Positions 6,578-59,961 of a DNA stretch of 64,000 nucleotides are shown here, piece by piece. Numbering within the stretch: position 1 is the first letter of the stretch; each line of letters begins with the position of its first letter. The notes beneath the pieces were generated by a model, which did no database searches, had not been told where the DNA came from, and was given only the letters and a program-made list of their open reading frames with translations. The stretch is from Escherichia coli. GTDB taxonomy: Bacteria; Pseudomonadota; Gammaproteobacteria; Enterobacterales; Enterobacteriaceae. The stretch lies in assembly GCF_024298765.1 (NCBI RefSeq), contig NZ_CP101210.1; one strand, written 5' to 3'. The translations under genes were made by a program, and so were the position numbers.

Positions 6578-6722
6578 GCAGGTGTAGGATCCAAACGCGG
6601 TCGGACACAGCAACTATTTGCGTAATTATATGAGGCATTTGCGACAAAAACTGGAACAGGATCTCGCCCGCCCCGCCATTTCATTACTGAAACCAGTATT
6701 GGGTATCGGTTTATGCTTTGAA
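6578..6722 (+). repeat. Degenerate direct copy of the kdpE 3' end (about 90% identity to 2243..2389)
   Basis: Aligned by eye: caggtgt..ccaaacgcggtcg..ttgcgacaaaaactggaacagga..attactgaaacc.gtattgggtatcggtttatgctttgaa; kdpE reading frame is lost after an indel. Confidence 0.85.
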
Positions 6723-6844
6723 AAAAGTGGCATTGTATGGATAAAGTCATTTTTTATTCACATATAAGGAACTTAATATTTAAAAAATGTCCCATACAAT
6801 GCCTCATCATAAATGACACCGTAGCATACAAGGAGCAAGTAGCG

Positions 6845-7240
6845 ATGCGTGATTGGACACAACGCCCTGAATTCGCAAGCGTGCGGGCTTTACCCATCGC
6901 CGATGATGTCGCAGGGGGAATTTTCTTAATGGTGGCGATCTTGGGGAAGATACTGGCTGCGTTTATTATTTTGCGCCAGATACGCTGATTTGGGAAAGTC
7001 TGGAGGTTGGATATTCTGAGTTTCTTCAGTGGGCATTATCCGGTGATTTAGATACCTTCAATGAAAATGTACGCTGGCCGCAATGGCAAGAAGACGTAAT
7101 AAAATTATCGGCAACGGAAGCCTTCACTTTCTACCCTTTCTTATGGGTACAAAGTGAAGAAGCAAGAACAAGAAAAGTTATTTCGCTTACTGAACTCTGG
7201 GAAATGCAGTATCAAATGAAAGAAACATTCACGCAATAAG
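6845..7240 (+). pseudogene. Frameshifted ORF remnant (ybfG-like); N-terminal 47 codons in one frame, about 100 further codons in another frame with no start
   Basis: ORF MRDWTQRPEFASVRALPIADD... ends at 6988; the adjacent frame reads ...FAPDTLIWESLEVGYSEFLQWALSGDLDTFNENVRWPQWQEDVIKLS...KETFTQ* without an ATG. Confidence 0.3.
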
Positions 7241-7934: not shown

Positions 7935-8640
7935 ATAAATATCCTCCGGCATAGCCGGAGGTTTTTCAAATGCGCCTATAAGGCTCTCTTACCAGCCGCG
8001 CCCTAACAGGCGCACACGATCTGACATTTGCATCCAACTTCGTTACTTACGGCCCGTAAACGGGCTGCCCGGATAGGGAATCGATAACTGCTCTCCCATT
8101 TTATCCTCTTCAAGCTGGTGCTTTATGTAATCCTGTATCTTCGCCGTGTTCTTACCCACCGTATCGACGTAGTACCCTCTGCACCAGAACTCTCTGTTCC
8201 TGTATTTGAATTTCAAATCACCAAACTGCTCGTAAAGCATCAGACTGCTTTTCCCTTTCAGATATCCCATAAAGCCGGATACACTCATTTTGGGCGGGAT
8301 CTCCACAAGCATATGGATATGATCTGCACAGCATTCAGCTTCAAGAATCCGTACGCTTTTCCACTCACACAGCTTTCTCAAAATACTGCCTATTGCTCTA
8401 CGCTTCTCTCTGTAGAACACTTGTCTTCGGTATTTTGGCGCAAAAACTATGTGATATTTACAGTTCCATCGGGTGTGCGCTAAGCTCTTTTCGTTCCCCA
8501 TTGGGACCCCCTTTTGATTTCTTGTTTGACACTTGCAGTTGCCAGACCGCAAGGTGTTTTAACAAATCAAAAGGGGTTTTAATAACTGGCTCAAAGCTGA
8601 AAGCTTTCCGGAACCCCCAGCCTAGCTGGGGGTTTTCTGT
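7935..8640 (-). mobile_element. IS200-family insertion sequence (boundaries approximate)
   Basis: Contains a Y1 HUH transposase gene plus subterminal hairpins (cccccagc-cta-gctggggg at 8614..8632; cctccggcatagccggagg at 7943..7961); about 0.7 kb, as expected for IS200. Confidence 0.55.
8043..8501 (-). CDS. tnpA: IS200 transposase TnpA (152 aa)
   Basis: Near-identical to Salmonella IS200 TnpA as I recall it (MGNEKSLAHTRWNCKYHIVFAPKYRR...HIHML...CRGYYVDTVG); HUH motif and catalytic Tyr present. Confidence 0.85.
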   Translation of the reverse strand: MGNEKSLAHTRWNCKYHIVFAPKYRRQVFYREKRRAIGSILRKLCEWKSVRILEAECCADHIHMLVEIPPKMSVSGFMGYLKGKSSLMLYEQFGDLKFKYRNREFWCRGYYVDTVGKNTAKIQDYIKHQLEEDKMGEQLSIPYPGSPFTGRK

Positions 8641-16001: not shown

Positions 16002-17666
16002 TTACTCGCCTACTTTCGCCCAGGTATCACGCAGCCCAACGGTGCGGTTAAATACCGGTTTTTCCGCCGTAGAATGGCGGCTGTCGAGGCAGAAGTAACC
16101 TTCACGCTCAAACTGGAATGCTTTACCCGCTACCGCGTCTTTCAGCGACGGTTCAGCGAAACCCTGTTTGATCACCAGCGATTCCGGGTTAATCACCGAC
16201 AGGAAATCATCCGCAGCACCTGGGTTAGGCACGCTGAACAGACGGTCATACAAACGGATTTCAACCGGCAGCGCATGTGCCGCGCTCACCCAGTGAATAA
16301 CACCTTTCACTTTACGACCATCTGCCGGATCTTTGCTTAAGGTGTCGGCGTCATAAGTACAGAAGATGGTGGTGATATTGCCTTCGGCATCTTTCTCCAC
16401 GCGTTCAGCCTTAATGACGTAAGCATTACGCAGACGCACTTCTTTACCCAGCACCAGACGTTTGTACTGCTTGTTAGCTTCTTCGCGGAAATCGGCGCGA
16501 TCGATCCAAATCTCACCGCTAAACGGCACCTGACGGCTCCCCATTTCCGGTTTGTTCGGATGGTTCGGCATGGTGACCATTTCGCCTTCGCCCTGATAGT
16601 TTTCGATAACCAGTTTCACCGGATCGATAACCGCCATTGCGCGCGGAGCGTTTTCGTTGAGATCTTCACGGATGCAGGATTCCAGCGACGCCATTTCAAT
16701 GGTGTTGTCCTGCTTGGTCACGCCGATGCGTTTGCAGAACTCACGAATAGAAGCCGCAGTGTAACCACGACGACGCAGACCGGAAATGGTCGGCATACGC
16801 GGGTCATCCCAGCCTTCAACGTGCTTGTCGGTCACCAGCAGGTTCAGCTTACGCTTGGACATCACAGTGTATTCCAGATTCAGGCGCGAGAATTCGTACT
16901 GGCGCGGGTGAACAGGAATGGTGATGTTGTCCAGCACCCAGTCGTACAGGCGACGGTTGTCCTGGAACTCAAGCGTACACAGAGAGTGCGTAATACCTTC
17001 CAGCGCATCGCTGATGCAATGGGTGAAGTCGTACATCGGGTAGATGCACCACTTGTTGCCAGTCTGGTGGTGTTCAGCAAATTTAATGCGGTACAGCACC
17101 GGATCGCGCATTACGATAAATGGCGACGCCATGTCGATTTTCGCACGCAGGCAGGCTTTACCTTCTTCAAAACTACCGGTACGCATTTTTTCGAACAGCG
17201 CCAGGTTCTCTTCAACGCTGCGGTCGCGGTACGGGCTGTTTTTACCCGGCTGCGTCAGGGTGCCGCGGTATTCGCGGATCTGTTCCGGTGTCAGTTCATC
17301 AACGTACGCCAGGCCTTTATTGATCAGTTCGATCGCATAGGCGTGGAGCTGATCAAAATAATCGGAGGAGTAACGGACGTTACCAGACCAGTGAAAACCT
17401 AACCACTCAACGTCGTTTTTGATCGACTCAACATACTCGATATCTTCTTTTACCGGGTTAGTGTCGTCGAAACGCAGGTTGCACTGGCCTTTATAGTCCT
17501 GGGCGATCCCGAAGTTCAGGCAGATAGATTTCGCATGGCCAATATGCAGATAGCCATTCGGCTCCGGCGGGAAACGGGTGTGTACTGTGGTGTGCTTACC
17601 ACTGGCCAGATCTTCATCGATGATCTGACGAATAAAGTTAGTCGGGCGGGCTTCTGCCTCACTCAT
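16002..17666 (-). CDS. glnS: Glutaminyl-tRNA synthetase
   Basis: 554 aa; class I HIGH (HIGH at residues 41-44) and VMSKR motifs. Confidence 0.95.
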
Positions 17667-26287: not shown

Positions 26288-26725
26288 TTATTGAGGTGCT
26301 TGTTGATTCTGATATGCAGTAAGGAAATGTTCCGGGTTTGCCACATCACTGTTTGACAACTCATCACTGTAGGCCACCGACCAGGTCGCCTGCTCATTCG
26401 GAATATGCAGGCTGCCATTCCCCTCTTTCAGGCGTAATAACTCAAAAGATTTGCCCTTAATTACGGCGGTATAGGATTTTTCACCTTCCTGTAATGCTTT
26501 CACTTTACAGCGAAAAATCTGGCCATCGATGTCATTATCAACATGCGATACCTGAATGAGGGCTTCATTAGAGGCTTTCGGCCCTATCCGCATCATCCAC
26601 ACCACAGCGCCTTCCTGCCCACGATAGCCAAAAACATATTTACCGATTTCCGGTTTGACCGTATCGGCAAACGCAGATTGCATAAGTAATAACGCACCCA
26701 TCAGCGCCGTCATAAAACGCAGCAT
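26288..26725 (-). CDS. Hypothetical secreted protein (145 aa) with N-terminal signal peptide
   Basis: Clean ORF with its own intergenic space and a signal peptide ending ...MQSAFA; function not recognised. Confidence 0.6.
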   Translation of the reverse strand: MLRFMTALMGALLLMQSAFADTVKPEIGKYVFGYRGQEGAVVWMMRIGPKASNEALIQVSHVDNDIDGQIFRCKVKALQEGEKSYTAVIKGKSFELLRLKEGNGSLHIPNEQATWSVAYSDELSNSDVANPEHFLTAYQNQQAPQ

Positions 26726-26988
26726 AGTATTCCCTCAATAAATCGCCTGAAGTGGTAGCAGAGATGCAGGCGTAGCGATCCCTGCCCTGTCCTGTTGCAA
26801 CGGGCCAGTATTTCATAGATTAATTTCCCACCACTATTGTAGAATTCCGAATTTCATCCTGTATGACAAAAGAATGGCTGTAGGGTGGGGAAAAAACACA
26901 AAGTAAACAATAATTGACGAATATAGCGCCATGCTGTTCGCAACCTAACCAAACAGTCACTTTCGAGCAATTTTCCTTGAAAAAGAGG

Positions 26989-27017
26989 TTGACGCTGCAA
27001 GGCTCTATACGCATAAT
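26989..27017 (+). promoter_or_regulatory. Sigma70 promoter of the tRNA operon
   Basis: -35 ttgacg, 17-bp spacer, -10 cataat, then GC-rich discriminator gcgcccc typical of stable-RNA promoters. Confidence 0.55.
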
Positions 27018-27056
27018 GCGCCCCGCAACGCCGATAAGGTATCGCGAAAAAAAGAT

Positions 27057-27133
27057 GGCTACGTAGCTCAGTTGGTTAGAGCACATCACTCATAATGATG
27101 GGGTCACAGGTTCGAATCCCGTCGTAGCCACCA
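27057..27133 (+). tRNA. metT: tRNA-Met (elongator, anticodon CAT)
   Basis: 77-nt cloverleaf ggctacgtagctcagttggttagagc...cat..ggttcgaatcc...cca. Confidence 0.95.
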
Positions 27134-27142
27134 TCTTTTTTT

Positions 27143-27227
27143 GCGGGAGTGGCGAAATTGGTAGACGCACCAGATTTAGGTTCTGGCGCCGCAAGGTGTG
27201 CGAGTTCAAGTCTCGCCTCCCGCACCA
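27143..27227 (+). tRNA. leuW: tRNA-Leu (anticodon TAG, long variable arm)
   Basis: 85-nt type II tRNA gcgggagtggcgaaattggtagacgc...tttaggt... Confidence 0.9.
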
Positions 27228-27250
27228 TTCACCAGAAAGCGTTGTACGGA

Positions 27251-27325
27251 TGGGGTATCGCCAAGCGGTAAGGCACCGGTTTTTGATACCGGCATTCCCT
27301 GGTTCAAATCCAGGTACCCCAGCCA
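27251..27325 (+). tRNA. glnU: tRNA-Gln (anticodon TTG)
   Basis: 75 nt; anticodon loop ttttgat; T-loop ttcaaat differs by one base from the next copy. Confidence 0.9.
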
Positions 27326-27359
27326 TCTTCTTCGAGTAAGCGGTTCACCGCCCGGTTAT

Positions 27360-27434
27360 TGGGGTATCGCCAAGCGGTAAGGCACCGGTTTTTGATACCG
27401 GCATTCCCTGGTTCGAATCCAGGTACCCCAGCCA
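27360..27434 (+). tRNA. glnW: tRNA-Gln (anticodon TTG)
   Basis: 75 nt; near-identical to the previous copy, with T-loop ttcgaat. Confidence 0.9.
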
Positions 27435-27449
27435 TCGAAGAAACAATCT

Positions 27450-27526
27450 GGCTACGTAGCTCAGTTGGTTAGAGCACATCACTCATAATGATGGGGTCAC
27501 AGGTTCGAATCCCGTCGTAGCCACCA
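27450..27526 (+). tRNA. metU: tRNA-Met (elongator, anticodon CAT)
   Basis: 77 nt; identical to the first tRNA-Met. Confidence 0.95.
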
Positions 27527-27574
27527 AATTCTGAATGTGTCGAATATGTTCGGCAAATTCAAAAACCAATTTGT

Positions 27575-27649
27575 TGGGGTATCGCCAAGCGGTAAGGCAC
27601 CGGATTCTGATTCCGGCATTCCGAGGTTCGAATCCTCGTACCCCAGCCA
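27575..27649 (+). tRNA. glnV: tRNA-Gln (anticodon CTG)
   Basis: 75 nt; anticodon loop attctga. Confidence 0.9.
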
Positions 27650-27686
27650 CTTTATTCAAGACGCTTACATCGTAAGTGCACCCAGT

Positions 27687-27761
27687 TGGGGTATCGCCAA
27701 GCGGTAAGGCACCGGATTCTGATTCCGGCATTCCGAGGTTCGAATCCTCGTACCCCAGCCA
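27687..27761 (+). tRNA. glnX: tRNA-Gln (anticodon CTG)
   Basis: 75 nt; identical to the previous CTG copy. Confidence 0.9.
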
Positions 27762-27765
27762 CATT

Positions 27766-27796
27766 AAAAAAGCTCGCTTCGGCGAGCTTTTTGCTT
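27766..27796 (+). terminator. Rho-independent terminator of the tRNA operon
   Basis: Hairpin aagctcgc-ttcg-gcgagctt followed by a T-run. Confidence 0.7.
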
Positions 27797-27804
27797 TTCT
27801 GCGT

Positions 27805-27905
27805 ATATTCAATGCCGAATGTGATGCTGACACGTCTTATCCTTCAAAGTCGGATGCGACGCTGGCGCGTCTTATCCGACCTACGGTTGGCATGCTTCCG
27901 GCAAT
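27805..27905. repeat. REP elements
   Basis: gtcggatgcgacgctggcgcgtcttatccgacctac and related units. Confidence 0.55.
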
Positions 27906-27914
27906 GTTGTAAGG

Positions 27915-29090
27915 CTACAACCCTAACGCATACTTCAGCGCCTGACGTTTCAACACGCCAGCACGCTCCGCCGCCATCAAACCAAGATTACGCACAAAAC
28001 GCAGCGGCGGCAGATTATTACTGAATCCGGCATAAAACAGATCCATACCACTTTGCATAATGAAGTTATCCGCCATGCGCCGCATCTGGTAACGCTTGAG
28101 GATCGGATAACTGGCCCACGCTTCGCCGTAGCTGCGGGCGTTGACCAGAACATCAATTAGGGCATCGACATCACGATAACCAAGATTCACCCCCTGCCCC
28201 GCCAGCGGATGGATGGTATGCGCGGCATCGCCCACCAGCGCAAGCCCCGGCTGCACATACTGCAACGCATGTCGGCGCGTCAGCGGAAACGCACCAGCGG
28301 CAAGCGGTGTCACGTAACCCAGACACGACGGGAAATGCTTCGCGATTTCCGTCTGGAGCTGCGTCATATTCATATTCTGCAACTGGCGAATACGCGCCGG
28401 AGAGTCATACCACACCAGCGATGCCCAGTTATCAAACAACGGCAGAAACGCACGCGGTCCGTCCGGAGTAAATTGCTGCCAGGTGCTATCGCCGGGATCG
28501 TTCTCGCACTGGACGCTAATCAACATGCACGACTGCGCATACTGCCAGGCATGAACGCCAATTCCCGCTATCTGCCGCACCTGCGAATTTGCGCCATCGG
28601 CACCAATCACCAGCTTCGCGCGGATCGTTTCACCGCCCTTCAGTTCCAGCTCCTGAAGATCATTATGGCGATGCAGCGCAATCAGCGAGCCTGGCACACG
28701 TAACGTTACTTTCGGATGCGCTTCCAGCGCCTGCCACAGCGCCTGTTGCAGGACAGTGTTTTCCACCATGTAGCCAAGCAACGGTAGCTTAAGTTCAGCG
28801 GCGTCAAACACCACATGCGCCGTTTCCCACTCCCACGTTTCCAGTCTGCGGTAAGGATGGCAACGCATAGCCTGTACTGCATCCCAGACCCCTAACCCTT
28901 TAAGCAATGATACCGAAGCCGCACTAATCGCCGAGATCCGCACGTCCGGCTGGCTGTCAGCGACAAACGGTGCAGGTTGGGCATGTTCGATAACCATTAC
29001 CGAAAATCCGTGCTGAGCCAGTCCCAGCGCCAGTGCGCCGCCGACCATTCCTCCGCCGACAATGGCAATTTCCGTTGGTTGATTTGTCAT
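27915..29090 (-). CDS. ubiF: FAD-dependent ubiquinone biosynthesis hydroxylase UbiF (391 aa)
   Basis: Rossmann GGGMVGG motif near the N-terminus. Confidence 0.9.
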   Translation of the reverse strand: MTNQPTEIAIVGGGMVGGALALGLAQHGFSVMVIEHAQPAPFVADSQPDVRISAISAASVSLLKGLGVWDAVQAMRCHPYRRLETWEWETAHVVFDAAELKLPLLGYMVENTVLQQALWQALEAHPKVTLRVPGSLIALHRHNDLQELELKGGETIRAKLVIGADGANSQVRQIAGIGVHAWQYAQSCMLISVQCENDPGDSTWQQFTPDGPRAFLPLFDNWASLVWYDSPARIRQLQNMNMTQLQTEIAKHFPSCLGYVTPLAAGAFPLTRRHALQYVQPGLALVGDAAHTIHPLAGQGVNLGYRDVDALIDVLVNARSYGEAWASYPILKRYQMRRMADNFIMQSGMDLFYAGFSNNLPPLRFVRNLGLMAAERAGVLKRQALKYALGL

Positions 29091-34925: not shown

Positions 34926-36803
34926 TTACGGTTCAGGGATACAAGCCACATCGCCATATTGGGGATGCCGAATAATTGCCTGCGGATCAAGCGAGCGCGT
35001 CCTGTCCATTTGGATTAACCTGTTCTTCGCCATAACAAATATCTTTCTACCATCCGCTGAAAAACGAAGGTGATTAACGTAGCTGGCAGGATAAACGCCA
35101 ATAATCTGCCCGGCATTAATATTGAGCAGGATGACATAACCTTGCAGGCCATATGACACCAACGCTAAATATTGACCGTCCGGGCTAATACCCTCAACGG
35201 AATAAACGCTCCTGCTACACCATTGCGTCATAATGCTGGCTTGTTGATCCCCTACGCTTATACGTGAAATCCCCTGGCTATCGGCAAAAATAATCTCGCC
35301 ATTTTTTGGTCGGAATCCCATCGCAGAAACGATACCACGCGCATCACCTGTGGGAAAGTCTTCTTTCTGATGCGTGATGGTATTGATGCGTACAATGTCG
35401 CCTCTGACCATACCGGGTATCAACAATGTTTTTTCATCCGGGGAAAGTGCCATAACCCAGGCGCCTGGTTTACCGCTCGTCCCCGTCCCGTCGTATTTCT
35501 CCAGCGGGATATCCGTCACATGCTGATAAGTCACCAGATCAATGGCTGACACACTATTACTGGTGCGATTCATCACCCAGGCTTTTGTGCCATCACGCGA
35601 GAGGATAAGGCTGTCAGGATGGGCGCCGGTGGTAATCGACTGAATAATCTCCCCCGTCGCCACGTTAATGACCGATACTGCATTCGCTTCAAATGAAGTC
35701 GCATAAATCAACTTTTCATCCAGGCTTAATGCCAGCGATCTGACGCCCTGATCTTTACAGCCACCACAATGTTTGACTGACTTTTCTTTCGCTATGGGCG
35801 CTGTAAAGGTATGCAGGATTTTCTTTTGTCCGAGGTCGAAAACAACAATGCTGTTGGTGTTTTCAATTGCGGCATACAACGTATTACCATCCCGACTGAT
35901 CGCCATATCATGGATATCGGCAATCTCAGCGAGTAAATCACCACTGGCCTGCTCACGACTTACCGGAGCGGATAATGTTTCCCTGAGGGCGTTGCGCTCC
36001 TCCACTAACTGCTGCTTTTTTTGTCGTCGCTCTTGTTCAATCTCCTGCGGATAAAACGCTTCACGCAGGCTTTGCCTGACCTGTAAAACTGATTCATCAA
36101 TCTGCTGCTGCACAAACCAGATAGTCCCGGTCAGAAGAAGAGTGACCGCAACAATAATCCCGCCTTCCGTAACGAGCCGATTTTGCCCAACTAAACGCGC
36201 ACTCAGCCAACCCAACGCGCCCCCCGCAATCAGGCCGCCAATGTGGCAAGCGTTATCTATTCCTGCTTGCCGGGCACCATACAACAGTGTCAGCGCCACC
36301 ATACCCAACAGAGAAAATACTCGCCGCTGGTTTTTATGGTGTGTACCCGCACCTGAAGAAAGCTGTGTTGCTATCGCAGCGCCCGCTATTCCCATAATTG
36401 CCCCGGATGCCCCAACGCTGATGACTATCTGCTCACTTTCGTGTAACGCATAACAGGCGCTGATCAGCCCACCAAAGATGCCGGAGAATAACCAGATAAT
36501 CAGGAGTCGCCATTTCCCCAGAATACGTTCCACCGCTCCCCCCACCACCAGGAGTGCAAACATATTCATCAGCAAATGAGAAACACTGCTGTGCAGAAAG
36601 ACACTGCTCAATAAGCGCCAGGATTCACCCGACAACGTGAGAGAAGCAACGTTAGCACCGAGATGGATAAGTGCGGATTGATCGACTTCTTCATAACTCA
36701 TCCATTGTGCGAGGTAACAAAATATCCCAACACAGAGCGCAAAAAGGATAAGGGTTATTGCGGGTAATTGAACATTTAACGGCTTAACCGAAGATGCAGA
36801 CAT
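34926..36803 (-). CDS. Rhomboid-family intramembrane serine protease fused to a C-terminal seven-repeat beta-propeller (625 aa)
   Basis: N-terminal ~230 aa has the rhomboid hallmarks: WR motif in loop L1 (SWRLL), TM2 HxxxN plus GGAVE, catalytic Ser in GASGA, catalytic His in NACHIGGLIAGGA, and an extra seventh TM. A charged linker follows, then seven S-x-D-G... repeats resembling YVTN beta-propeller blades. Confidence 0.75.
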   Translation of the reverse strand: MSASSVKPLNVQLPAITLILFALCVGIFCYLAQWMSYEEVDQSALIHLGANVASLTLSGESWRLLSSVFLHSSVSHLLMNMFALLVVGGAVERILGKWRLLIIWLFSGIFGGLISACYALHESEQIVISVGASGAIMGIAGAAIATQLSSGAGTHHKNQRRVFSLLGMVALTLLYGARQAGIDNACHIGGLIAGGALGWLSARLVGQNRLVTEGGIIVAVTLLLTGTIWFVQQQIDESVLQVRQSLREAFYPQEIEQERRQKKQQLVEERNALRETLSAPVSREQASGDLLAEIADIHDMAISRDGNTLYAAIENTNSIVVFDLGQKKILHTFTAPIAKEKSVKHCGGCKDQGVRSLALSLDEKLIYATSFEANAVSVINVATGEIIQSITTGAHPDSLILSRDGTKAWVMNRTSNSVSAIDLVTYQHVTDIPLEKYDGTGTSGKPGAWVMALSPDEKTLLIPGMVRGDIVRINTITHQKEDFPTGDARGIVSAMGFRPKNGEIIFADSQGISRISVGDQQASIMTQWCSRSVYSVEGISPDGQYLALVSYGLQGYVILLNINAGQIIGVYPASYVNHLRFSADGRKIFVMAKNRLIQMDRTRSLDPQAIIRHPQYGDVACIPEP

Positions 36804-37257: not shown

Positions 37258-38166
37258 ATGCAATTACGTAAACCTGCCACAGCAATCCTGGCCCTGGCGC
37301 TTTCCGCAGGACTGGCACAGGCAGATGACGCCGCCCCGGCAGCAGGCAGTACGCTGGACAAAATCGCCAAAAACGGCGTGATTGTCGTCGGTCACCGTGA
37401 ATCTTCAGTACCTTTCTCTTATTACGACAATCAGCAAAAAGTGGTGGGCTACTCGCAGGATTACTCCAACGCCATTGTTGAAGCAGTGAAAAAGAAACTC
37501 AACAAACCAGACTTACAGGTGAAATTGATTCCGATCACCTCACAAAACCGTATTCCACTGCTGCAAAACGGCACTTTCGATTTTGAATGCGGTTCTACCA
37601 CCAACAATGCCGAACGCCAAAAACAGGCGGCTTTCTCTGACACTATTTTCGTGGTCGGTACGCGCCTGCTGACCAAAAAGGGCGGCGATATCAAAGATTT
37701 TGCCGACCTGAAAGGCAAAGCCGTAGTCGTCACTTCCGGCACCACCTCTGAAGTTTTGCTCAACAAACTGAATGAAGAGCAAAAAATGAATATGCGCATC
37801 ATCAGCGCCAAAGATCACGGTGACTCTTTCCGTACCCTGGAAAGCGGTCGTGCCGTTGCCTTTATGATGGATGATGCTCTGCTGGCCGGTGAACGTGCGA
37901 AAGCGAAGAAACCAGACAACTGGGAAATCGTCGGCAAGCCGCAGTCTCAGGAAGCCTATGGTTGCATGTTGCGTAAAGACGATCCGCAGTTCAAAAAGCT
38001 GATGGATGATACCATCGCTCAGGTGCAGACCTCCGGTGAAGCGGAAAAATGGTTTGATAAGTGGTTCAAAAATCCAATTCCGCCGAAAAACCTGAACATG
38101 AATTTCGAACTGTCAGACGAAATGAAAGCACTGTTCAAAGAACCGAATGACAAGGCACTGAACTAA
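37258..38166 (+). CDS. gltI: Glutamate/aspartate ABC transporter periplasmic binding protein (302 aa)
   Basis: Signal peptide MQLRKPATAILALALSAGLAQA; start placed at the internal ATG. Confidence 0.95.
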   Translation: MQLRKPATAILALALSAGLAQADDAAPAAGSTLDKIAKNGVIVVGHRESSVPFSYYDNQQKVVGYSQDYSNAIVEAVKKKLNKPDLQVKLIPITSQNRIPLLQNGTFDFECGSTTNNAERQKQAAFSDTIFVVGTRLLTKKGGDIKDFADLKGKAVVVTSGTTSEVLLNKLNEEQKMNMRIISAKDHGDSFRTLESGRAVAFMMDDALLAGERAKAKKPDNWEIVGKPQSQEAYGCMLRKDDPQFKKLMDDTIAQVQTSGEAEKWFDKWFKNPIPPKNLNMNFELSDEMKALFKEPNDKALN

Positions 38167-38323
38167 TTACAAGAACCAGGGGCGGAAATTCCAGCCCTCT
38201 CGATTGTTACGTAGCACGGACAGACTATACGCCTGGTGGTCGTTCCCCATCGGGCCTGAAAACCGCAATACGCTGGGTAACAATCTTCGAGGGTAGCAGT
38301 TAACGCTGCTACCCTCTTTTTTC
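38165..38323 (+). ncRNA. sroC: Probable SroC sRNA (gltI 3' UTR-derived); 5' end approximate
   Basis: gltI-gltJ intergenic region ending in a strong terminator (gagggtagcag-ttaacg-ctgctaccctc followed by TTTTTT); location matches the known SroC locus. Confidence 0.45.
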
Positions 38324-38335
38324 TGGAGTAGATTT

Positions 38336-42289: not shown

Positions 42290-44872
42290 ATGCAAGAGCA
42301 ATACCGCCCGGAAGAGATAGAATCCAAAGTACAGCTTCATTGGGATGAGAAGCGCACATTTGAAGTAACCGAAGACGAGAGCAAAGAGAAGTATTACTGC
42401 CTGTCTATGCTTCCCTATCCTTCTGGTCGACTACACATGGGCCACGTACGTAACTACACCATCGGTGACGTGATCGCCCGCTACCAGCGTATGCTGGGCA
42501 AAAACGTCCTGCAGCCGATCGGCTGGGACGCGTTTGGTCTGCCTGCGGAAGGCGCGGCGGTGAAAAACAACACCGCACCGGCACCGTGGACGTACGACAA
42601 CATCGCGTACATGAAAAACCAGCTCAAAATGCTGGGCTTTGGTTATGACTGGAGCCGCGAGCTGGCAACCTGTACGCCGGAATACTACCGTTGGGAACAG
42701 AAATTCTTCACCGAGCTGTATAAAAAAGGCCTGGTATATAAGAAGACTTCTGCAGTCAACTGGTGCCCGAACGACCAGACCGTACTGGCGAACGAACAAG
42801 TTATCGACGGCTGCTGCTGGCGCTGCGATACCAAAGTTGAGCGTAAAGAGATCCCGCAATGGTTTATCAAAATCACCGCTTACGCTGACGAGCTGCTCAA
42901 CGATCTGGATAAACTGGATCACTGGCCAGACACCGTTAAAACCATGCAGCGTAACTGGATCGGTCGTTCCGAAGGCGTGGAAATCACCTTCAACGTTAAC
43001 GACTATGACAACACGCTGACCGTTTACACTACCCGCCCGGACACCTTTATGGGTTGTACCTACCTGGCGGTGGCTGCGGGTCATCCGCTGGCACAGAAAG
43101 CGGCGGAAAATAATCCTGAACTGGCCGCCTTTATTGACGAATGCCGTAACACCAAAGTTGCCGAAGCTGAAATGGCGACGATGGAGAAAAAAGGCGTCGA
43201 TACTGGCTTTAAAGCGGTTCACCCATTAACGGGCGAAGAAATTCCCGTTTGGGCAGCAAACTTCGTATTGATGGAATACGGCACGGGCGCAGTTATGGCG
43301 GTTCCGGGTCACGACCAGCGCGACTACGAGTTTGCCTCTAAATACGGCCTGAACATCAAACCGGTTATCCTGGCAGCTGACGGCTCTGAGCCAGATCTTT
43401 CTCAGCAAGCCCTGACTGAAAAAGGCGTGCTGTTCAACTCTGGCGAGTTCAACGGTCTTGACCATGAAGCGGCCTTCAACGCCATCGCCGATAAACTGAC
43501 TGCGATGGGCGTTGGCGAGCGTAAAGTGAACTACCGCCTGCGCGACTGGGGTGTTTCTCGTCAGCGTTACTGGGGCGCGCCGATTCCGATGGTGACGCTG
43601 GAAGACGGTACCGTAATGCCGACCCCGGACGACCAGCTGCCGGTGATCCTGCCGGAAGATGTGGTGATGGACGGCATTACCAGCCCGATTAAAGCAGATC
43701 CGGAGTGGGCAAAAACTACCGTTAACGGTATGCCAGCGCTGCGTGAAACCGACACTTTCGACACCTTTATGGAGTCCTCCTGGTACTATGCGCGCTACAC
43801 TTGCCCGGAGTACAAAGAAGGTATGCTGGATTCCAAAGCGGCTAACTACTGGCTGCCGGTGGATATCTACATTGGTGGTATCGAACACGCCATTATGCAC
43901 CTGCTCTACTTCCGCTTCTTCCACAAACTGATGCGTGATGCAGGCATGGTGAACTCTGACGAACCAGCAAAACAGTTGCTGTGTCAGGGTATGGTGCTGG
44001 CAGATGCCTTCTACTATGTTGGCGAAAACGGCGAACGTAACTGGGTTTCCCCGGTTGATGCTATCGTTGAACGTGACGAGAAAGGCCGTATCGTGAAAGC
44101 GAAAGATGCGGCAGGCCATGAACTGGTTTATACCGGCATGAGCAAAATGTCCAAGTCGAAGAACAACGGTATCGACCCGCAGGTGATGGTTGAACGTTAC
44201 GGCGCGGACACCGTTCGTCTGTTTATGATGTTTGCTTCTCCGGCTGATATGACTCTCGAATGGCAGGAATCCGGCGTGGAAGGGGCTAACCGCTTCCTGA
44301 AACGTGTCTGGAAACTGGTTTACGAGCACACAGCGAAAGGTGATGTTGCGGCACTGAACGTTGATGCGCTGACTGAAGATCAGAAAGCGCTGCGTCGCGA
44401 TGTGCATAAAACGATCGCTAAAGTGACCGATGATATCGGCCGTCGTCAGACCTTCAACACCGCAATTGCGGCGATTATGGAGCTGATGAACAAACTGGCG
44501 AAAGCACCGACCGATGGCGAGCAGGACCGCGCCCTGATGCAGGAAGCACTGCTGGCCGTTGTCCGTATGCTTAACCCGTTCACCCCGCACATCTGCTTCA
44601 CGCTGTGGCAGGAACTGAAAGGCGAAGGCGATATCGACAACGCGCCGTGGCCGGTTGCTGACGAAAAAGCGATGGTGGAAGACTCCACGCTGGTCGTGGT
44701 GCAGGTTAACGGTAAAGTCCGTGCAAAAATCACCGTTCCGGTGGACGCAACGGAAGAACAGGTTCGCGAACGTGCTGGCCAGGAACATCTGGTAGCAAAA
44801 TATCTTGATGGCGTTACCGTGCGTAAAGTGATTTACGTACCCGGTAAACTCCTCAATCTGGTCGTTGGCTAA
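42290..44872 (+). CDS. leuS: Leucyl-tRNA synthetase (860 aa)
   Basis: Class I HMGH and KMSKS motifs; start at [11 protein letters not shown], not the extended ORF start. Confidence 0.95.
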
Positions 44873-59528: not shown

Positions 59529-59559
59529 CAAAAAAAACCCGCTGATTAAGCGGGTTTTG
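59529..59559. terminator. Bidirectional terminator between crcB and cspE
   Basis: Hairpin aacccgct-gatta-agcgggtt flanked by A and T runs. Confidence 0.7.
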
Positions 59560-59577
59560 AATTCTTGCTGACGTATC

Positions 59578-59787
59578 TTACAGAGCGATTACGTTTGCAG
59601 CAGAAGGGCCTTTGGCACCGTTAGTGATTTCGAACTCTACGCGCTGACCTTCAGCAAGAGTTTTAAAACCATTAGTCTGGATTGCAGAGAAGTGTACGAA
59701 CACGTCTTTGCTGCCGTCTTCCGGAGTAATGAAACCGAATCCTTTGGACTCATTAAACCACTTAACGTTACCTTTAATCTTAGACAT
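59578..59787 (-). CDS. cspE: Cold-shock-domain protein CspE (69 aa)
   Basis: [20 protein letters not shown]... with RNP motifs; ORF-track start is extended. Confidence 0.95.
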
Positions 59788-59961
59788 CAAAATTACCTTT
59801 ACATGAAAAATAGACACAAATGCTGTGTCGGTTACCAGTACACCAATTGTGGTACGCTTTGTCCAGTGCAACTTTACTAAAAAGTGATAAAAGTCGCGTT
59901 ATTTTTGATGTTAATTATTTTACTCATTGATTTTAAAGAGTTTACTAAAATTTCATTTGTC

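Follow-up and report, generated by a model that had tools for sequence, protein, structure and literature searches.

Introduction

The metT tRNA operon of Escherichia coli, of which Nakajima, Ozeki and Shimura reportedly gave a description in 1981, has figured in textbooks ever since, and both its processing pathway and its essentiality have already been worked out. For K-12, Mohanty and Kushner reported that its seven tRNAs are carried in a single transcript, from which the rho-independent terminator is removed first, mainly by RNase E; RNase P next separates the tRNAs, and RNases T, PH and D complete 3' maturation (PMC2241853). In a systematic deletion study the metT transcription unit proved undeletable and was reported as essential, because the CAU (elongator Met), UAG, UUG and CUG anticodons are encoded nowhere else (PMC11480407). 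The elbow of the tRNA follows a conservation rule that comprises G18, G19, T54, T55, C56, a purine at position 57, A58 and the G53-C61 pair. Position 57 is a conserved purine that is stacked in the elbow, and in Bacteria it is more commonly G than A (PMC7912444).

Here we describe this operon in a window, by which we mean the whole 64-kb stretch of E. coli DNA that was analysed. The locus is the already known E. coli metT tRNA operon (metT-leuW-glnUW-metU-glnVX), and all of the features of that operon that can be checked in sequence are present. One of its two tRNA-Gln(UUG) genes, glnU, carries A rather than G at position 57. We consider this G57A substitution to be effectively neutral, with a probability of roughly 0.9, and the evidence for this reading is weighed below against three other explanations. 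It should be noted that nothing in the operon or in the allele would surprise a specialist and that both matter little; the allele is a minor natural polymorphism which may serve as a lineage marker.

Organization of the operon

ARAGORN found seven tRNA genes on the + strand between positions 27057 and 27761 and none elsewhere in the 64-kb window (Table 1). The Rfam model RF00005, for which the gathering score is 29, independently matches all seven, with scores of 57.6-71.1 bits and E-values from 1e-14 to 6e-11. Both programs give the order Met(CAT)-Leu(TAG)-Gln(TTG)x2-Met(CAT)-Gln(CTG)x2 on one strand, with which the annotation of K-12 agrees, and the seven genes, their order and their coordinates are exactly those that the preliminary description had listed. 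In a base-by-base comparison, metT is identical to metU (77/77) and glnV to glnX (75/75). The seven differences between glnV and glnW consist of the wobble base 34 and three fully compensated stem pairs, the Gln(UUG) and Gln(CUG) genes being identical at 68 of 75 positions.

Table 1. Features of the metT operon in the window, with positions counted from its first nucleotide.
Feature	Position	Strand	Description	Basis
Predicted sigma-70 promoter	26989..27017	+	-35 TTGACG, 17-nt spacer, -10 CATAAT	Consensus scan, 10/12 matches
Discriminator	27018..27024	+	GC-rich, GCGCCCC, directly 3' of the -10 hexamer	Sequence reading
metT	27057..27133	+	Elongator tRNA-Met(CAU), CCA encoded; same as K-12 metT	ARAGORN; Rfam 71.1 bits
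leuW	27143..27227	+	tRNA-Leu(UAG), long variable arm, T-loop TTCAAGT; same as K-12 leuW	ARAGORN; Rfam 57.6 bits
glnU	27251..27325	+	tRNA-Gln(UUG), A57 allele; 1 difference from K-12 glnU	ARAGORN; Rfam 62.1 bits
glnW	27360..27434	+	tRNA-Gln(UUG), standard G57 allele	ARAGORN; Rfam
metU	27450..27526	+	Elongator tRNA-Met(CAU), identical to metT	ARAGORN; Rfam
glnV	27575..27649	+	tRNA-Gln(CUG)	ARAGORN; Rfam
glnX	27687..27761	+	tRNA-Gln(CUG), identical to glnV	ARAGORN; Rfam
Rho-independent terminator	27767..27801	+	11-bp stem AAAAAGCTCGC/GCGAGCTTTTT, loop TTCG, then T-rich tail	Terminator scan

Of 5,426 complete E. coli genomes, 5,281 contain 80% or more of the 1,051-nt region used in our searches, and dozens of these match it at 100%. 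Between positions 1 and 50000, the window departs at only 4 sites from E. coli strain 104, which was isolated from a chicken in China, so that the annotation of strain 104 can be read directly onto the window. The operon is flanked by asnB and ubiF-miaB according to the annotations of both strain 104 and K-12. Aligned with the operon of K-12, that of the window is ~99% identical, and it shares with it the gene order, the anticodons, the flanking genes asnB, ubiF and miaB, the promoter hexamers and the terminator. The mature tRNAs are also the same in six cases out of seven, the sole difference in a mature tRNA being G57A in glnU. Outside the mature tRNAs, the two strains are distinguished by a handful of SNPs and indels in the leader, the spacers and the downstream REP-like DNA, and by an interval between asnB and the promoter that is 431 bp longer here than in K-12.

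Some small inverted repeats accompany the genes. A small hairpin is present in each Gln-Gln spacer: GCGG-TTCA-CCGC in that of glnU-glnW (27326-27359), and CTTAC-ATC-GTAAG in that of glnV-glnX (27650-27686). The stem of the latter is kept in K-12, and the two bases that differ between the strains belong to its loop (ATC in the window, CTT in K-12). The metT gene is bracketed by a perfect 12-nt inverted repeat (27047-27058 and 27131-27142; AAAAAAAGATGG / CCATCTTTTTTT), owing to which the A-run in the precursor leader could pair with the T-run in the metT-leuW spacer and extend the acceptor stem. The K-12 leader has an additional A.

Transcription and processing

Only one promoter-like site was found in the interval 26500-28200. 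Shuffled sequences contained an average of 1.8 such sites, so that the number of sites is insignificant by itself; the position and sequence of the site are the same in K-12. GC-rich discriminators, known from rRNA and tRNA promoters, typify stringently controlled stable-RNA promoters, and the predicted promoter is followed by a discriminator of this kind (Table 1). The terminator sequence is also the same in K-12.

Because the promoter, the terminator and six of the seven tRNAs are those of K-12, we infer that the scheme of transcription and processing worked out in K-12 applies to this strain as well. Transcription would then start from the single sigma-70 promoter and yield a seven-tRNA precursor that ends at the terminator. 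The terminator would be taken off mainly by RNase E, after which RNase P would separate the tRNAs and 3' exonucleases would trim them to the encoded CCA.

The A57 allele of glnU

The genes glnU and glnW differ at a single base, A versus G at linear position 56, which is position 27306 (+) of the window. This base corresponds to canonical position 57, since tRNA-Gln has no residue 17 and ARAGORN places its anticodon at 33 and not at 34. The T-loop sequence of glnU is TTCAAAT, and TTCGAAT is shared by both Met genes and the remaining three Gln genes. By the structure line of the Rfam alignment, position 57 is the fourth base of the 7-nt T-loop. A purine-to-purine change at position 57, within the T-loop, had been proposed in the preliminary description, and both the base comparison and Rfam bear this out. 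The same description had named formal folding as the result that could overturn it, should the substitution fall in a stem or disrupt the cloverleaf. The outcome was negative on both counts, the changed base being a loop base and the cloverleaf being unchanged: the minimum-free-energy fold calculated with ViennaRNA is the same cloverleaf for A57 and G57, at -28.1 kcal/mol in both cases, and both alleles obtain the same Rfam score of 62.1.

The match of the A57 gene to RF00005 is full-length and includes the 7-bp acceptor stem, the anticodon stem-loop, the 5-bp T stem and the 7-nt T-loop of the cloverleaf. The nucleotides of the elbow are also kept, namely GG in the D-loop, CCTGG-TTCAAAT-CCAGG in the T arm and a purine at position 57.

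The allele is comparable to isodecoder polymorphism in multi-copy tRNA genes, in that genes with the same anticodon differ at one position of the tRNA body that tolerates either purine. Unlike fixed, species-wide isodecoder pairs, however, glnU G57A is a strain polymorphism within one species, present in ~1% of its genomes. For this reason, the suggestion that the variant tells the two paralogues apart holds for this strain but not for E. coli in general, as glnU is identical to glnW in K-12 and in ~99% of genomes.

Frequency and origin of the allele

A comparison of glnU and glnW alleles across strains, which the preliminary description had proposed as a check, gave the following distribution. 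Of 5,423 complete E. coli genomes, 62 (~1.1%) carry the exact 75-nt A57 gene, and 5,408 contain an exact match to the standard G57 gene, i.e., the glnW sequence. An exact match to the 3' part of glnU together with its unique downstream spacer was likewise obtained in 62 genomes, although these two sets of 62 differ by at least one genome, because strain FT130 is counted for the gene and yet carries the allele in glnW. At least 30 of the A57 carriers match the whole 1,051-nt region at 100%.

These counts also bear on the question of whether the variant is an error of sequencing or assembly in the window. Near-identical tRNA repeats are prone to assembly problems, and in some assemblies labelled "complete" the repeated genes of this operon have probably caused a collapse. 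Thirteen such E. coli assemblies contain no match to tRNA-Gln(UUG) better than the Gln(CUG) genes (queries 27251-27325 and 27360-27434). In the one assembly inspected, that of MC1061 (NZ_CP195014.1, 632039-635113), the operon is reduced to Met-Gln(CUG): it lacks leuW, both Gln(UUG) genes (glnU and glnW), one of the Met genes and one of the Gln(CUG) genes. As the transcription unit is reported to be essential, this shortening is probably a repeat collapse in the assembly. For the glnU allele, by contrast, 62 complete genomes that were assembled independently of one another have the same base, at least 30 of them with the 1,051-nt region at 100%. An error as the source of the allele was rejected on this ground, and we regard its chance as practically nil.

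The carriers are mostly isolates from chicken, turkey and other birds, together with some from humans, pigs, dogs and water. One of them, 14EC020, has been published as ST117, O24:H4 (PMC6206212). We considered assigning the carriers to a lineage by serotype, since several are labelled O78:H4. Members of ST23 (phylogroup C) and members of ST117 (phylogroup G) alike may have this serotype (PMC12351747), which therefore cannot fix the lineage by itself, and the carrier set as a whole is left unassigned. As a practical matter, glnU G57A is a simple single-base marker for ~60 complete genomes, mostly derived from poultry, among them the documented ST117 isolate.

Two results indicate the direction of the change. 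A search with the 1,051-nt region in which A57 had been changed back to G gave a match at 100% in strain 2014C-3338; the same, ancestral haplotype thus exists with G57, so that A57 is derived. In addition, an exact-pattern scan of 100,044 genomes, each representing a single bacterial or archaeal species, detected the 33-nt A57 3' half of the gene only in Neiella marina, N. holothuriorum, N. litorisoli and Enterovibrio nigricans. As none of the matches among these species representatives lies in the Enterobacteriaceae, A57 was rejected as the ancestral enterobacterial state and is derived in E. coli. The substitution would have arisen on the local haplotype of a poultry-associated lineage, for which one carrier is documented as ST117.

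Apparent tolerance of substitution at position 57

Native use of A57 is observed both within the operon and in other gammaproteobacteria. The leuW gene of the same operon has A57 natively, and all 9 of the 9 tRNA-Gln(UUG) genes recovered from the three Neiella species and Enterovibrio nigricans have A57. These tRNAs are identical to that of glnU at 71 of 75 positions, the differences being two compensated anticodon-stem pairs. From the native A57 tRNA-Gln of Neiella and Enterovibrio, we infer that the A57 tRNA of glnU would be functional, and hence expressed, modified and aminoacylated by GlnRS.

The same substitution was also encountered in three other genes of the operon, each time in a single genome with the seven-gene operon intact, the strains being unrelated: in glnW of FT130, on a K-12-like haplotype (686-760 of the extracted locus), in glnV of TW10690 (801-875 of the extracted locus) and in metT of GDSC2239PM (801-877 of the extracted locus). 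These single-genome cases could be sequencing errors. Transfer of the glnU allele into glnW by gene conversion was considered for FT130 and rejected; this strain has G57 in glnU and a K-12-like haplotype, which makes its A57 an independent event. Among the carriers of the glnU allele, A57 was not found in the glnW context, for which FT130 was the sole match. As controls, the transitions C56T and G53A in tRNA-Gln(UUG), two substitutions only and both at conserved neighbouring sites, were found in 0 of the 5,423 genomes. The recurrence of G57A and the absence of the control substitutions fit a site that tolerates either purine, and position 57 would seem to be among the few substitution-tolerant places in these otherwise invariant tRNA genes, as G57A has appeared in four of them.

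In the interpretation that we prefer, position 57 would require only a purine, and this purine is stacked between the G18-U55 and G19-C56 pairs of the elbow. Two further circumstances would make the substitution neutral: an unchanged copy, glnW, lies 35 bp downstream in the same transcript, and other gammaproteobacteria natively use A57 on the same tRNA-Gln backbone. The change had been called "probably neutral" in the preliminary description, and this judgement is now backed by the equal Rfam score and folding energy, by A57 in leuW and in Neiella and Enterovibrio, by the recurrence of the change and by the absent controls.

A mildly deleterious effect would be the foremost alternative, although an unlikely one. 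In this case A57 would weaken the contact between the D-loop and the T-loop at the elbow or slow the processing of glnU, the cost would be buffered by glnW, and the allele would have spread by hitch-hiking with a clone. Such an effect would agree with the presence of G57 in ~99% of E. coli genomes, with the higher frequency of G than of A at this position in Bacteria (PMC7912444), and with the observation that the variant hits only one of the two redundant copies in all of the inspected cases. It would also agree with the scan of species representatives, as mild purifying selection would likewise leave the A57 3' half in no other species of the Enterobacteriaceae. However, every copy recovered from Neiella and Enterovibrio has A57 on a nearly identical backbone, leuW has it natively, and the predicted structure and energy are unchanged. 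Furthermore, the allele has been kept in ~60 genomes from several countries and hosts, and neither reversion nor gene conversion by glnW is seen in those carriers whose entire 1,051-nt region is an exact match.

The recurrence might suggest instead that G57A is a recurrent elbow change favoured by selection and not a passive polymorphism. In favour of this reading, the change has appeared independently in glnU, glnW, glnV and metT, and in glnU it is fixed in a lineage, ST117 included, that is associated with poultry and with extraintestinal disease and has been successful worldwide. If the reading were true, the altered purine could affect something that depends on the elbow, for example a toxin directed at tRNAs, a factor from a phage, the kinetics of RNase P or a tRNA-derived fragment. 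We consider this very improbable. The narrower proposal that the allele is adaptive in the poultry-associated lineage, by way of an altered tRNA-derived fragment, of elbow recognition by a nuclease, toxin or phage factor, or of the supply of tRNA-Gln(UUG), is very improbable as well. What favours it is circumstantial, namely the fixation of the allele in a successful clone and the recurrence of the same substitution in three other genes of the operon. Against this, the recurrences are single genomes, a single clonal origin accounts for the frequency without selection, and no other change in the operon accompanied G57A. Moreover, G:C to A:T transitions are the most frequent of spontaneous changes, and no E. 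coli factor is known to read the identity of purine 57.

Origin of the array

An internal duplication had been proposed for the array, and this proposal was sustained in part. The order Met-Gln-Gln is repeated, as had been claimed, and the paralogues are identical or near-identical. However, the spacers do not add to this picture: in semi-global alignments of every corresponding pair, evaluated with 5,000 shuffles, no significant similarity between the spacers of the two units was found (p = 0.09 to 0.99). The lowest value, 0.09, came from the 15 nt that precede the Met genes; the Gln-Gln spacers gave 0.83, and the remaining pairs gave 0.41-0.99. A repeat matching at 10 of 16 positions just upstream of metT and metU was considered as a trace of the duplication and rejected (p ~0.09).

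The pattern Met-(Leu)-Gln-Gln / Met-Gln-Gln is most likely the product of a tandem duplication, as judged from gene order only, and this duplication would be an ancient one, because the spacers retain no significant similarity. The gene copies would have been kept identical by purifying selection and possibly by gene conversion, while the spacers would have diverged beyond recognition.

The arrays of the outgroups provide a point of comparison. The cluster in Neiella, Met(CAT)-Leu(TAG)-Gln(TTG)-Gln(TTG), has the order of the first unit in E. coli, and that in Enterovibrio nigricans is Met-Leu-Gln-Met-Leu-Leu. The stretches recovered from these two genera contain neither Gln(CTG) genes nor a second Met-Gln-Gln unit. 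Judging from these arrays, Leu was probably part of the ancestral module and may have been lost from the second unit in E. coli.

Surroundings of the operon

Several further features of the window may be mentioned. A segment of 431 bp between asnB and the metT promoter, at about 26372-26802, is absent from K-12 MG1655. Mostly within this segment lies an open reading frame for 145 aa (26288-26725, -), of which K-12 keeps only a 3' remnant. It corresponds to the hypothetical protein WP_000943489.1 in strain 104, its N-terminus resembles a signal peptide (MLRFMTALMGALLLMQSAFA), and a search of its translation matched no Pfam family at E-values up to 1. On the other side of the operon, between its terminator and ubiF, two tandem 35-nt direct repeats that are 80% identical occupy positions 27808-27877; they are REP-like, end in CGTCTTATCC, and contain a cluster of several of the SNPs that separate the window from K-12.

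Genes related to tRNA are located on both sides. The glutaminyl-tRNA synthetase gene glnS (16002-17666, -) lies ~10 kb upstream of the operon and the leucyl-tRNA synthetase gene leuS (42290-44872, +) ~15 kb downstream of it, and the tRNA-modification gene miaB adjoins ubiF. That these genes lie so near to tRNA genes for Gln and Leu is probably due to chance in the layout of the E. coli chromosome.

Farther from the operon, an IS200C transposase gene (8043-8634, -) is located beside pgm, with an Rfam match to STnc490 (146 bits) immediately upstream, and a frameshifted DUF2625 gene together with a fragment of a winged-helix gene lies nearby at 6591-7239. Between lnt and gltI, the window contains a gene for a rhomboid-family intramembrane serine protease of 625 aa (34926-36803, -), in place of which K-12 presumably has a copy of IS5 at the lnt-gltI junction. 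Finally, Rfam matches to sroC in the gltI-gltJ spacer (172.6 bits; 38162-38324, +) and to the cspA thermoregulator 5' UTR (123 bits; 59530-59888, -) are both of the kind that is expected in E. coli.
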